Source: an uncultured Sulfitobacter sp.
GTDB taxonomy: Bacteria; Pseudomonadota; Alphaproteobacteria; Rhodobacterales; Rhodobacteraceae
Length of the DNA stretch: 64,000 nt
Assembly: GCF_947500075.1 (NCBI RefSeq)
Contig: NZ_CANMQS010000012.1
Coordinates: 1,233 to 65,232, forward strand
Direction of reading: 5' to 3'
How positions within the stretch are numbered: position 1 is the stretch's first letter; each line of letters opens with the position of its first letter. Position numbers and translations under genes: made by a program. The notes under the pieces are model-generated. The model searched no databases. It was not told the origin of the DNA and saw only the letters and a list, made by a program, of their open reading frames with translations. Positions 30,676 through 33,503 of this stretch are shown here, piece by piece.

Positions 30676-31488
30676 TCAACCCTGGTTGGGGAAACTGACT
30701 TCGCAGCGGTGACCCGCGGGCAGGGCAAGGTCCGGATTGGGCATCACCACCTGCACGCCGAAGGTTCCGGAGGCCGCATCAAAGATGCGGTCGATGACTT
30801 TTATGCGCCCCTGAAAGGTGCCCTCAAGAGGGGCGCGCGGCGTGATTTCCACTGTCATATCAAGGTCTAGCTTGGTGAACATCTCAACCGGTAAAAACGC
30901 TTCGACATGCAGTGGATCCAGCTGGGCGATGGTCACGATCTCTGCATCCTGGTCGGTATATTCACCAGTAAAAAGCGCGCGTGACTGCACAACGCCGTCA
31001 ATGGGGCTGGTAATGGTGCGCTGGCTCACAATCTCATTGGCACGTTTCAGCTCAAGCGTGGCGATGCGGTTGCGCATTTCCGCCATTGCAAGCTCTCCGC
31101 CCGCGACATCGACGGAAGCCTTGGCTTCCTCCAGCTCTTCTGCACTGGTGATATTGCGTTCCACCAGCGTGGCGACCCGCTCCATCCGGCTTTCGGCGAG
31201 CGCAAGGCGCGCGCGCTGCACCTCAACGTCCGATTGGCTCGCAGCGCGTTCTTTCATCAGATCCACGGTGGTTTGTTCGATACTGGTATCGAGGCGGGCA
31301 ATCACCTGCCCTTTCTCCACCAGATCGCCCCGCCCGACGTTTACTTCGCTCAGCAGACCGCCAACCGGGGCGGATATATTGACGGTCACCGCCGGTGTGA
31401 TCACGCAATCGAATGTCTGGGCGGTGGCAGAAAAAGCGCCAAACCCAAAGCAGGCAGCAAGAGCGGTTGTACGAAGCAAAGGCATCAT
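30676..31488 (-). CDS. HlyD-family periplasmic adaptor (membrane fusion protein) with signal peptide
   Basis: 270 aa. Signal-like MMPLLRTTALAACFGFGAFSATAQ, a lipoyl-like hairpin (VGGLLSEVNVGRGDLVEKGQVIARLD), a coiled coil and a beta-barrel. Its start overlaps the SecA-like stop (ATGATG/TGA). Confidence 0.85.
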   Translation of the reverse strand: MMPLLRTTALAACFGFGAFSATAQTFDCVITPAVTVNISAPVGGLLSEVNVGRGDLVEKGQVIARLDTSIEQTTVDLMKERAASQSDVEVQRARLALAESRMERVATLVERNITSAEELEEAKASVDVAGGELAMAEMRNRIATLELKRANEIVSQRTITSPIDGVVQSRALFTGEYTDQDAEIVTIAQLDPLHVEAFLPVEMFTKLDLDMTVEITPRAPLEGTFQGRIKVIDRIFDAASGTFGVQVVMPNPDLALPAGHRCEVSFPNQG

Positions 31489-33503
31489 TTTTCAAATCCC
31501 GAGAAGGCAAGGACGCGGTCCAATTGCCGGTCCATCTTGATAAGCTGTCGGCGTGCGCGGGCGTTCAATCCTTCCGCGCGTTTCTGACTGCGGCGGAAGG
31601 CGATCATGGCAAAGGGGCGGCCCAATATGCTGGGCAATTGTGCAAGCTGGCTGATCACCGGTGTCTTGATGGCTGTGACCAGAGGATCATCCAGCGATAG
31701 AATGGTTTCATAGGACCCCGGCTGACCCTGACGGGCCGTGCGCCCGATCAACTGTCGATCGATACGCGCGCTATCATGGCGTTCGGTCAGCATCACATGC
31801 AGACCACCCGCCTTGATTACTTCGTCTGGCACGTGGATATGGACGCCGCGCCCGGCCATATTGGTGGCCACGGTCACACGCCCCGGCTGCCCGGCATCCT
31901 TGATCACCTCCGCTTCCTCATCGGCGTTGACGGCATTCAGCACATCATGCTGAACACCGCGCTTGGTCAGATGGGCGCTGATCTTGTCCGATGCCCCAAC
32001 CGTGCGGGTCCCGATCAAAACAGCCTGCCCATTGCTGCGCAGGGTGTTCACTCTGTCCGCAATCAGATCAAGTTTTGCCTCTTCCTTTCGGGTAATCCGC
32101 GTGCCGAGGTGGCGCATCTTGGTGGGCAAGCGCGTGGGCAGCCGCAGTGTTGGAATGCGGTACACTGCGCAGATCTCACGCTGCACTTCCTGCACAGTGC
32201 CCGACATGCCGGACAGGCGCATGTAGCGGCGAAAGAACTTCTGGTAGGTCGTGCGCGCGATGGCCAGCTTTCGACCCGTCAGCTCAAGGTCCTCCTTGAA
32301 CTCCACCAGCTGGTGCAACCCATCGTTCCAGGACCGTTCCGGCATCAGACGCCCGGTGTATTCATCCACGATCACGATCTTGCCGTCCTGAATGACGTAC
32401 TGATCGCCTTCCTCAAAGAAGGTGCGCGCGGTGATGGCCTGACTTACAGCATGCTCGCGCTGGATCTTGTTGTGCCACAGCGGCTCAAGGGGCTTGCAGA
32501 ACTCCTCCAGCCGGTCCTTGCCAAAATCTGTCAGTTCAATGCGCTTCTCACTGGTGCGTTTCTTGTAGTGCAGATCCTCAAACATCTGATCCGCCAGATC
32601 ATATGTGGTGCGCGCCCATGCCTCCTCCGCAGCAACGTCTGTTTCCTGTGACAGGATCAGTGGCGTGCGGGCTTCGTCGATCAACACGCTGTCGGCTTCA
32701 TCCACCACAGCGAAATGCAGACCCCGCATCACGGGCGCGTCCGTATCATCCCCTTCCATCCGGCGCAGGCGCAGGCGGATGTCCCCTGTGCCCTGCCCGA
32801 TCTTCACCTGATCGCGCAGGTAGTCGAATGCGATCTCCTTGTTGGAGCAATAGACGATGTCGCTCAGATAGGTCTCACGGCGTTCATCGGGCGTATGTTC
32901 GTGGTCAATGCTCCCAACGCTGAGGCCGAGCCAGTCAAAAAGCGGCTTCATCTCCTCCGCGTCGCGTTGCGCAAGGTAGTCATTCACGGTCACAACATGG
33001 GTGGGCAAGCGGGCAAGTCCGGCCACGGCGGCGGTCAGGGCGGCGGCGAGGCTCTTACCCTCCCCCGTTGCCATTTCAACCAGCTTGCCGCTGAGCATCG
33101 TGAGTGCTGCGAACAATTGTTCATCATGGGGGCGCAGGCCCAAAGTGCGGCGGCTGACCTCGCGCACAAGAGACACGGCTTCGCCCAAGGCCGGGCCGCT
33201 GAGTTGCGTGGTGATCAGCCGCGCGCGATTGGCGTCGATGGCCTCCCGCAGGTCCGCGTCGCTCATGGCCTTGATGTTTTCTTCGCGTCTGCACGCGCGG
33301 CGCAGGATCTGTTTCAGCCGCGCGCGGCGCAGCATCCCGATACGTCCTGTAAGGCGCCCGAATATCTGGTGCATCCGATGGTCGATGTCGCTGAGCCGTG
33401 CATCATCGCGGGTCGGATAGGCCCGAAGGGTGAAAGGGCGCGCGAAGCCCGTGGCCGCGCGCGCCCGTCCAAACAAAGGATGGGAGGATGATGCCTCAGG
33501 CAT
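31485..33503 (-). CDS. truncated SecA-like DEAD-motor ATPase (NBD1, preprotein-crosslinking-like insert, NBD2; no wing or C-terminal domains)
   Basis: Start placed at ATG 33503 (MPEASSS), because the ORF-track extension to 33638 lies inside the SapC gene. SecA motifs: EMATGEGKS (33051-33074), [77 protein letters not shown]. Confidence 0.85.
   Translation of the reverse strand: [672 protein letters not shown]

Follow-up and report, generated by a model that had tools for sequence, protein, structure and literature searches.

The Locus and the Short SecA Gene

We analyzed a stretch of 64,000 nucleotides (hereafter the window) from an uncultured Sulfitobacter sp. (contig NZ_CANMQS010000012.1), centering on a gene for a short SecA-like ATPase (hereafter short SecA) and on the secretion cassette to which it belongs. 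The short SecA gene lies on the minus strand at 31485–33503 and encodes a protein of 672 amino acids; a plus-strand translation of these coordinates is riddled with stop codons. It stands within a row of genes which, in minus-strand order, comprises a giant open reading frame (ORF), GAF-HlyD, a PqqD/M50/HlyD fusion (hereafter M50-HlyD), SapC, short SecA, HlyD, and a sulfotransferase. The ORF that contains the gene extends over 31485–33638 (minus strand), and its first ATG would give a product of 717 residues; the ATG at 33503, which is Met46 of that product, gives 672. The latter is the better start because a database protein 99% identical to short SecA (P0001) has 672 residues and because the alignments of short SecA with its homologs begin at about residue 15–30.

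An earlier note on this DNA, which did not name the strand, had identified the gene as a SecA paralog that keeps the motor but lacks the C-terminal half, translationally coupled to SapC on one side and to HlyD on the other. All the motifs that it quoted were recovered by re-translation at their coordinates (MATGEGKSL, 33048–33074; DEAD, 32691–32702; motif V, 31836–31865; GGLHV...QPGS, 31713–31808), and exactly 75 residues follow the last of them. Both overlaps exist: the stop codon of SapC (TGA, 33496–33498) lies within the start region of short SecA, an overlap of 8 nucleotides, and the stop codon of short SecA and the start codon of HlyD are combined in the tetranucleotide ATGA (31485–31488). 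The observation is confirmed and lies far beyond chance. The HlyD protein is indeed encoded downstream, but it is more precisely a short RND-type periplasmic adaptor of 270 residues with a signal sequence, and two further HlyD-domain proteins are encoded upstream. The gene and its features are as follows.

31485–33503, minus strand: short SecA-like ATPase, 672 amino acids (717 from the alternative upstream ATG at 33638); from Pfam, NCBIfam, phmmer against Protein Data Bank (PDB) sequences, alignment with Escherichia coli SecA, AlphaFold2, and Foldseek.
33372–33437, minus strand: N-terminal family motif YPER.D..WLD; from the family alignment, per-column counts, and the secondary structure of the model.
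33048–33074, minus strand: Walker A motif MATGEGKSL, re-translated; G147, E148, G149, and K150 are invariant in 76 family members.
32691–32702, minus strand: Walker B motif, a literal DEAD box (DEVD in E. coli SecA); D268, E269, and D271 are invariant, and A270 is found in 75/76.
32301–32615, minus strand: PPXD, somewhat shorter than that of E. coli; from Pfam (SecA_PP_bind, E-value 9e-26) and alignment.
31713–31865, minus strand: helicase motifs V and VI of NBD2, including the arginine-finger region; from alignment, per-column counts, and re-translation.
31485–31631, minus strand: C-terminal helix (residues 625–668) corresponding to the start of the SecA scaffold helix, followed by a LAFSGxxE tail and the stop codon; from the model, the E. 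coli alignment, and conservation of the tail.

A SecA Motor without Most of the Scaffold and without the Wing

Short SecA matches the Pfam domains SecA_DEAD (E-value 5e-90), SecA_PP_bind, and P-loop_SecA (4e-43), with additional weak matches to DEAD and Helicase_C; the Pfam search did not find SecA_SW. By phmmer against PDB sequences, it aligns to residues 37–603 only of Bacillus subtilis SecA, and its alignment with E. coli SecA ends near residue 655 of the latter, about 35 residues into the long scaffold helix, the scaffold remainder, the wing, the two-helix finger, and the C-terminal tail being absent. In the protein, an N-terminal extension thus precedes NBD1, PPXD, and NBD2, and the scaffold helix is represented by its first ~44 residues. 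All NCBIfam SecA and SecA2 models give strong matches which yet remain far below their curated cut-offs. The housekeeping models TIGR00963 (cut-off 814) and NF009538 (cut-off 800) score 524 and 518 bits, respectively, and their matches stop at profile positions ~470–490 of ~800. The SecA2 models TIGR03714, TIGR04221, TIGR04397, and NF012136 score 437 against 930, 395 against 725, 460 against 1085, and 353 against 1100, respectively. Over the SecA and SecA2 profiles together, the matches cover only the N-terminal ~60–75% of the models.

The AlphaFold2 model, which was built on the family alignment, is confident (mean predicted local distance difference test score [pLDDT] 86.1; predicted template modeling score 0.84), and its last element is a helix of 44 residues. 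In a Foldseek search with this model, the best matches are all SecA or SecA2 proteins, with E-values down to 1e-48. The best global superpositions are with SecY-engaged, substrate-bound SecA (6itc and 5eul; template modeling [TM] scores of 0.77–0.79), and the engineered truncation SecA-N68 (5k9t) appears among the matches at rank 13. Profile, structure, and phylogeny (see below) all support the description of the protein as a SecA paralog that keeps the motor and lacks the wing, the remainder of the scaffold, and the C-terminal tail. The wording of the earlier note, that a SecYEG-docking C-terminal half is missing, holds for the two-helix finger and the wing, which are absent, but it is loose. 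In SecA–SecY structures, the contacts with SecY involve the two-helix finger, the wing, and also the PPXD, which is retained here.

Besides this reduced architecture, the family shows features of its own, namely the N-terminal extension of ~45 residues, an insertion of 17 residues in NBD1, a DEAD box where E. coli SecA has DEVD, and the highly conserved LAFSGxxE sequence at the extreme C-terminus. In the model, the YPER.D..WLD motif of the N-terminal extension is followed by a long extra helix (residues 39–72) that is absent in canonical SecA, and the motif may be a docking site for a partner. Across 76 family members, the residues that make up Walker A, Walker B, and motifs V and VI do not vary, except that position 555 is an aspartate in 54/76 and a histidine in 22/76, the window protein having His555; the other motif V and VI residues are essentially invariant.

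A Family with a Conserved Truncation

By using an HMMER search that covered 1.84 billion representative proteins (clusters at 50% identity), we found that the best 150 representatives are almost exclusively proteins of ~640–690 residues, whose alignments reach the last residues of short SecA. The LAFSGxxE tail is equally constant, F667 and G669 each being kept in 75/76 members. Because length and tail are conserved in the best 150 clusters and in the 76 members, respectively, the truncation is, as judged from the sequences, a family trait that was selected and not a sign of decay. A neighbor-joining tree of 67 sequences (596 columns) separates canonical from short SecA proteins and groups the cassette-linked short SecAs into a clade of their own, each with 100/100 bootstraps.

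These data bear on the alternative that short SecA is the remnant of a secA gene in decay or one of the generic DEAD-box RNA helicases. It could be argued from the weak Pfam DEAD and Helicase_C matches and from the names that NCBI gives to orthologs, "DEAD/DEAH box helicase" and "prepilin peptidase." However, length, C-terminal tail, and synteny are conserved, the catalytic residues do not vary in more than 150 clusters at 50% identity, the PPXD insertion is specific to SecA, and generic helicases match the model in Foldseek at E-values of only ~1e-9, against 1e-48 for SecA, so that we give this explanation hardly any credence. A pseudogene or a generic helicase is refuted by the conservation data.

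The view that the gene is not a housekeeping secA is likewise supported by the scores below the NCBIfam SecA cut-offs, by the separate, fully supported clade, and by the location of relatives on plasmids and chromids. The finding of the earlier note is therefore correct. It is not new, because the family had already been described from genomes under the name "secondary SecA_DEAD domain proteins" (PLoS One 10:e0129066, PMC4452313; Kamneva, Poudel & Ward 2015), of which the window gene is a further member.

The planctomycete short SecAs (in loci L041, L058, L084, and L039, L064, L082) make up a group of their own with greater similarity to canonical SecA (44% vs. 38% identity), and some of them occur in unrelated contexts, beside genes for type II secretion protein F, amylases, or Dus. 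RefSeq gives short SecA orthologs names that disagree with one another and are in part incorrect, since "prepilin peptidase," "DEAD/DEAH box helicase," and also "preprotein translocase subunit SecA" are in use (examples are L004, 19773–21797; L005, 20031–21947; and L008, 19965–21950). We found no curated NCBIfam model that covers the family. If the export model proposed below holds, hundreds of genes named "prepilin peptidase" or "DEAD/DEAH box helicase" could be re-annotated.

The Cassette and Its Conservation

The genes that surround short SecA in the window are the following.

38687–64000, minus strand: giant protein, putative cargo, at least 8,436 amino acids within the window, its N-terminus lying beyond the window end; from the ORF, Pfam, and NCBIfam.
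36542–38533, minus strand: GAF-HlyD, 663 amino acids, with cytoplasmic GAF domain(s), one probable transmembrane segment (at about residues 398–416), and a periplasmic HlyD domain; from Pfam and the sequence.
34390–36537, minus strand: M50-HlyD, a fusion of 715 amino acids with a cytoplasmic PqqD-like domain (of the type that recognizes ribosomally synthesized and post-translationally modified peptides [RiPPs]), an M50/site-2-protease-like domain with ~7 transmembrane segments, and a periplasmic HlyD domain; from Pfam, NCBIfam, and hydrophobic segments.
35896–35910 and 35596–35628, minus strand, within the preceding gene: the M50 protease motifs HELGH and NGNPLLRFDG, respectively; from the sequence.
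33496–34281, minus strand: SapC family protein, 261 amino acids; Pfam SapC, E-value 5e-71.
30676–31488, minus strand: periplasmic adaptor of the RND_mfp/HlyD_D23 type, 270 amino acids, with an N-terminal signal or lipoprotein-like sequence; from Pfam and NCBIfam (TIGR01730, 142 bits, above cut-off).
29772–30626, minus strand: sulfotransferase-family protein, 284 amino acids, directly downstream on the same strand; Pfam Sulfotransfer_3.

We counted the short and canonical SecA loci among the matches listed in a scan of genome contigs, and the locus counts given here refer to these. M50-HlyD is present in 48 of the 56 short-SecA loci, usually immediately upstream, and beside none of ~20 canonical secA genes. 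The set of GAF-HlyD, M50-HlyD, and HlyD, complete in the window, is also found in 48/56 short-SecA loci, and the short HlyD/RND adaptor is kept downstream of short SecA in most cassette loci. GAF-HlyD is the conserved first gene of the cassette, and the order giant protein, GAF-HlyD, M50-HlyD, (SapC or DUF3467), short SecA, HlyD is kept across phyla; in three planctomycete loci it is permuted to short SecA, GAF-HlyD, HlyD, M50-HlyD. We identified the cassette in at least dozens of genomes, which belong to Alpha-, Beta-, Gamma-, and Deltaproteobacteria, Planctomycetota, and Verrucomicrobiota, and also in Marinobacterium, Ollibium, and Marimonas. It lies on plasmids in Pseudosulfitobacter, Methylosinus, and Pontibrevibacter, the Methylosinus repABC plasmid pMSC49a having a TolC gene inside the cassette, and at least a dozen records place it on a plasmid or chromid, which argues for an accessory role. 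The other 80+ loci yielded no homolog of the sulfotransferase next to the cassette, and this gene may be a local addition to the operon, outside the conserved cassette.

SapC occurs in seven cassettes and DUF3467 takes its place in six others (L005, L008, L009, L015, L017, and L038), in which a protein of ~95–105 residues is encoded between the giant gene and GAF-HlyD (annotated examples are 93 residues long in L008, 15689–15970, and 106 in L005, 15553–15873). SapC is confidently modeled by AlphaFold2 (pLDDT 88.6), and its identity among relatives (60–85%) is higher than that of short SecA (47–60%). A search for a PDB sequence relative of DUF3467 found none. SapC and DUF3467 look like alternative accessory factors; that they act as chaperones is a guess.

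Residues 29–405 of M50-HlyD match the NCBIfam model daptide_HExxH, which describes a RiPP leader protease with a PqqD-like domain (E-value 1e-46), and among 44 M50-HlyD homologs the conservation of HExxH and NP....DG is 95% or higher. Since this N-terminal half resembles a leader protease, and since NCBI names orthologs "PqqD family peptide modification chaperone," the cassette might be thought to export or process a small RiPP-like leader peptide, with the giant gene only a frequent neighbor and short SecA in the service of the peptide. We regard this as very improbable. Neither conserved tailoring enzymes nor precursor-like small ORFs were found in the cassettes, short peptides need no SecA-type clamp, and the only conserved extra neighbor is the giant LEPR-XLL gene, which itself carries a leader-like N-terminal motif.

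The Giant Neighbor as Candidate Cargo

The giant protein of the window is acidic, contains 0.1% cysteine, and carries RTX nonapeptide repeats near its C-terminus. When the ORF was scanned in parts, Pfam recognized RTX repeats only, leaving 5,000 residues without a Pfam domain. Tandem Repeats Finder detected no tandem arrays at the DNA level, and internal similarity at the protein level is limited. The last ~250 residues, downstream of the RTX repeats, contain a metzincin-like zinc-binding motif (HELGHTLGYDH; 38966–38998, minus strand), and the C-terminus has a weak NCBIfam match to myxosortase-dependent metalloproteases (E-value 5e-4); the giant protein may carry a C-terminal protease domain of its own.

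Giant proteins here and in relatives have ~8,000–13,000 residues. The orthologous neighbors are annotated as LEPR-XLL domain proteins, and the one from Pseudosulfitobacter matches NCBIfam NF012209 (E-value 2e-7). In 16 loci, a short basic leader and then the sequence ExLEPRxLxSAD open the large ORF that adjoins the cassette; in most of them, this sequence lies 12–97 residues from the first methionine. The same pattern does not match once among ~520,000 residues of ORFs at loci without the cassette. From this distribution among sequences, the LEPR-XLL motif likely marks the cargo. No Sec-type hydrophobic signal was found in the cargo N-termini that carry the LEPR motif.

The nature of these N-termini is relevant to the possibility that short SecA is a SecA2-like accessory ATPase working on the housekeeping SecYEG, which would serve the inner membrane only, HlyD and TolC then providing passage across the outer membrane in a two-step process. 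Such a role has its attractions: short SecA has 33–36% identity in NBD1, PPXD, and NBD2 with the structures of SecA and SecA2, it retains the PPXD, which contacts SecY in known complexes, and there is a precedent for domain loss in Mycobacterium tuberculosis SecA2 (4uaq), a reduced SecA that uses SecYEG. We nevertheless consider it unlikely. The two-helix finger and most of the scaffold, kept in every characterized SecA and SecA2, are absent; the SecA2 NCBIfam models remain far below their cut-offs (for instance 437 vs. 930); the cargo N-termini have no hydrophobic Sec-type signal peptide; and the genes with which it is tightly coupled in its operon encode membrane and adaptor proteins and do not include secY or secE. 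Indeed, neither secY, secE, nor asp genes were found in the window or in related loci, where the neighbors are HlyD, M50, and GAF genes.

The opposite end of the giant protein suggests another possibility. C-terminal RTX repeats are typical of ABC-dependent type I substrates, and short SecA could then be, instead of a translocation motor, an ATP-dependent unfoldase, holdase, or targeting factor that prevents the nascent giant chain from folding, possibly at the ribosome, and hands it to another exporter, such as an ABC type I system encoded elsewhere. The M50, GAF, and HlyD proteins would in that case process or regulate an N-terminal anchor, as LapG and LapD do for LapA-type adhesins. SecA is known to bind ribosomes and nascent chains (6s0k is among the PDB matches), GAF domains suggest regulation, and a conserved protease active site combined with an N-terminal motif resembles a release/retention switch. 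On the other hand, three periplasmic adaptors, with TolC in one cassette, are hard to explain without a conduit, and an ABC transporter is linked to the cassette neither in the window nor in the loci surveyed by Kamneva et al. (PMC4452313). No HlyB-type ABC transporter was found in the operon or in the 64-kb window, of which the sole ABC genes are an ABC-2 Wzm/Wzt-like pair in a polysaccharide locus (7208–10216). We judge this second possibility to be improbable as well.

A Proposed Model for Export of the Giant Protein

The reading that we favor, with moderate confidence, is that short SecA takes the place of the ABC ATPase as the motor of an envelope-spanning, type-I-like exporter, whose dedicated cargo would be the neighboring giant LEPR-XLL/RTX protein. 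The observations from which it starts are the domain content, the intact catalytic motifs, the conserved truncation, the conserved synteny, and the linkage to LEPR-XLL giant genes. From them we infer every mechanistic step, including which way the chain moves, that SecYEG is not required, that the leader is cut off, and what forms the pore. According to this model, the giant protein, devoid of a Sec signal peptide, would bear a short basic N-terminal leader ending in ExLEPRxLxSAD, to which the cytoplasmic PqqD-like domain of M50-HlyD would bind, as RiPP recognition elements do. The PPXD of short SecA would clamp the unfolded chain and feed it, N-terminus first and at the expense of ATP, into the polytopic M50 domain, the putative conduit through the inner membrane. 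From there, the chain would proceed by way of the periplasmic HlyD domains of the three adaptors to a TolC-type channel in the outer membrane. The M50 active site would cut off the leader, the GAF domains might gate the system, and the RTX repeats would fold in extracellular calcium.

More tentatively, and as a possibility to which we do not commit ourselves, the cassette may represent a distinct secretion pathway for LEPR-XLL giants of ~8,000–13,000 residues, defined by PqqD-like recognition, M50 cleavage, and a wingless SecA motor used instead of an ABC transporter or SecYEG, with export N-terminus first through M50, HlyD, and TolC. A scaffold-less SecA would then have been adopted independently in the giant proteins of Omnitrophota and Actinobacteria, and "SW-less SecA" would be a general mover of giant polypeptides.

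Several points weigh against the proposal of a SecA-driven exporter. C-terminal RTX repeats characterize substrates that an ABC transporter secretes C-terminus first by the type I route, and the gene for such a transporter of the giant protein could lie elsewhere. The motor lacks the two-helix finger, which is considered necessary for pushing by SecA, and must therefore work differently from SecA. Conduction of folded or long polypeptides is not known for site-2 proteases, and the M50 pore is putative. No TolC gene was found in the 64-kb window, nor was the LEPR-XLL motif matched there, because the N-terminus of the giant ORF lies outside it, beyond position 64000. For SapC, neither a significant structural neighbor in the PDB (best E-value 0.39) nor a sequence match to solved structures was found. 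Members of the family are known from genomes, and the function assigned to them is a predicted one. Finally, in Methylobacterium extorquens AM1, exponential-phase expression of the operon genes other than the GAF gene was not detected (PMC4452313).

How giant proteins pass two membranes is poorly understood, and the cassette pairs such a protein with a stripped SecA motor, a membrane protein resembling leader proteases, and three periplasmic adaptors, an ABC transporter being absent. If the exporter model is true, it would represent a new way of energizing a type-I-like conduit and would imply that neither SecY nor the two-helix finger nor the wing is indispensable to the SecA motor. The LEPR-XLL link provides a concrete and testable cargo signal. 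Experiments should be feasible, as relatives are carried by culturable bacteria, among them named isolates of Ensifer adhaerens, Mesorhizobium ciceri, and Rhizobium johnstonii, Pseudosulfitobacter sp. DSM 107133, and, according to PMC4452313, M. extorquens AM1 (META1p2399-2402).

The Wider Neighborhood

The rest of the window holds a surface-glycan locus (1205–10216 and 18447–20680) with rmlCBDA (dTDP-rhamnose), several glycosyltransferases, the Wzm/Wzt-like pair, and two sulfotransferases, which lie at 10217–11059 and 29772–30626 (both minus strand), the latter being the one directly after the secretion cassette. This arrangement hints at glycosylation or sulfation tied to the giant protein or to a co-expressed polysaccharide. 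The window also encodes a second RTX protein, of 1,116 amino acids, with seven HemolysinCabind stretches (E-value 4e-65), which adjoins a protein of 1,217 amino acids with a WsaF_C/glycosyltransferase C-terminus (11075–14425 and 14562–18215, minus strand); near this second RTX protein, too, a dedicated type I ABC exporter was not found. At 25007–26575 (minus strand) lies a gene for a 522-residue fusion of a ChrR-type, anti-sigma-like cupin with a flavin amine oxidase. In Marimonas (L003), separate genes for Cupin_7, sigma-70, amine oxidase, DUF1365, and cyclopropane-fatty-acid synthase adjoin the cassette. Because cupin and amine oxidase genes accompany the cassette there as well, the wider neighborhood may be partly conserved.

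Comparison with Known Systems

The closest known relatives are the secondary SecA_DEAD proteins (PMC4452313), which have the same domain content, neighborhood, phyletic distribution, and separation from canonical SecA as a clade, and from which nothing essential differs. In the proteins described there, the SecA_SW wing/scaffold domain is lost or reduced to a stub, they coexist with canonical SecA and form a clade apart from it, and their neighborhood consists of GAF-HlyD, Peptidase_M50-HlyD, HlyD/Biotin_lipoyl, and occasionally an OEP protein. The same authors suggested that the SecA_DEAD protein is the ATPase replacing the ABC transporter, no such transporter being linked to the loci that they surveyed, and that the M50 protein is a possible pore. 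Their text does not mention a substrate, giant proteins, RTX, SapC, PqqD, or DUF3467, and our searches found neither follow-up work to their study nor, in the literature on combinations of SapC, LEPR-XLL, M50/PqqD/HlyD, and GAF, anything on this system. New here are the linked giant LEPR-XLL/RTX candidate cargo, the PqqD-like domain, the conserved protease motifs, SapC/DUF3467, plasmid carriage, and a confident structure model.

With canonical SecA (2fsf, 1m6n, 3din, and 6itc), short SecA shares NBD1, PPXD, and NBD2 at 30–36% identity and all the ATPase motifs, with model TM scores up to 0.79. It differs in that the scaffold helix is largely missing, together with the wing, two-helix finger, and Zn/SecB-binding tail, and in having DEAD instead of DEVD, an N-terminal extension, an NBD1 insertion, and a conserved C-terminal tail of its own.

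SecA-N68, an engineered or proteolytic C-terminal truncation of E. coli SecA, is described in the literature as having a deregulated ATPase and being unable to translocate. Its extent is almost the same as that of short SecA, comprising the motor and PPXD without the C-domain (5k9t; DEAD motor, 3bxz). SecA-N68 is, however, a laboratory fragment, whereas short SecA is a natural and conserved product that carries additional motifs at both termini and has dedicated partners.

SecA2 proteins work with SecYEG or SecY2 and retain the two-helix finger. Those of Gram-positives and mycobacteria (4uaq and 6sxh) resemble short SecA in being second, non-essential SecA paralogs for special cargo, but the solved structures have 705–786 residues, against the 672 of short SecA, whose partners are HlyD, M50, and GAF proteins.

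With type I secretion (HlyBD-TolC and the PCAT bacteriocin exporters), the cassette has in common HlyD proteins, sometimes TolC, and an acidic RTX cargo, and it resembles the PCAT exporters in the pairing of an N-terminal leader with a protease domain in the exporter. It differs in having no ABC transporter but a soluble SecA-like ATPase, an intramembrane M50 instead of a C39 protease, and three different adaptors instead of one. In classical type I systems, TolC is often encoded elsewhere.

The last comparison is with the giant proteins of Omnitrophota and Actinobacteria, in which SecA_DEAD and PPXD modules without scaffold and wing are fused into the giant protein, whose own export they have been proposed to effect, and are linked to type II-like genes (West-Roberts et al. 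2023, bioRxiv 10.1101/2023.11.21.568195). A database protein of 4,930 amino acids (P0193), with two SecA_DEAD/PPXD/P-loop modules devoid of SecA_SW and five Fis-type HTH_8 domains, resembles these Omnitrophota fusions. Common to both systems are a SecA motor with PPXD but without scaffold and wing, and its association with a giant protein; whereas the motor is part of the giant in those phyla, here it is a separate protein of 672 residues in an HlyD/M50 cassette. Scaffold-less SecA motors accompany giant proteins in two configurations, fused and stand-alone, which makes it all the more worthwhile to test the export model.

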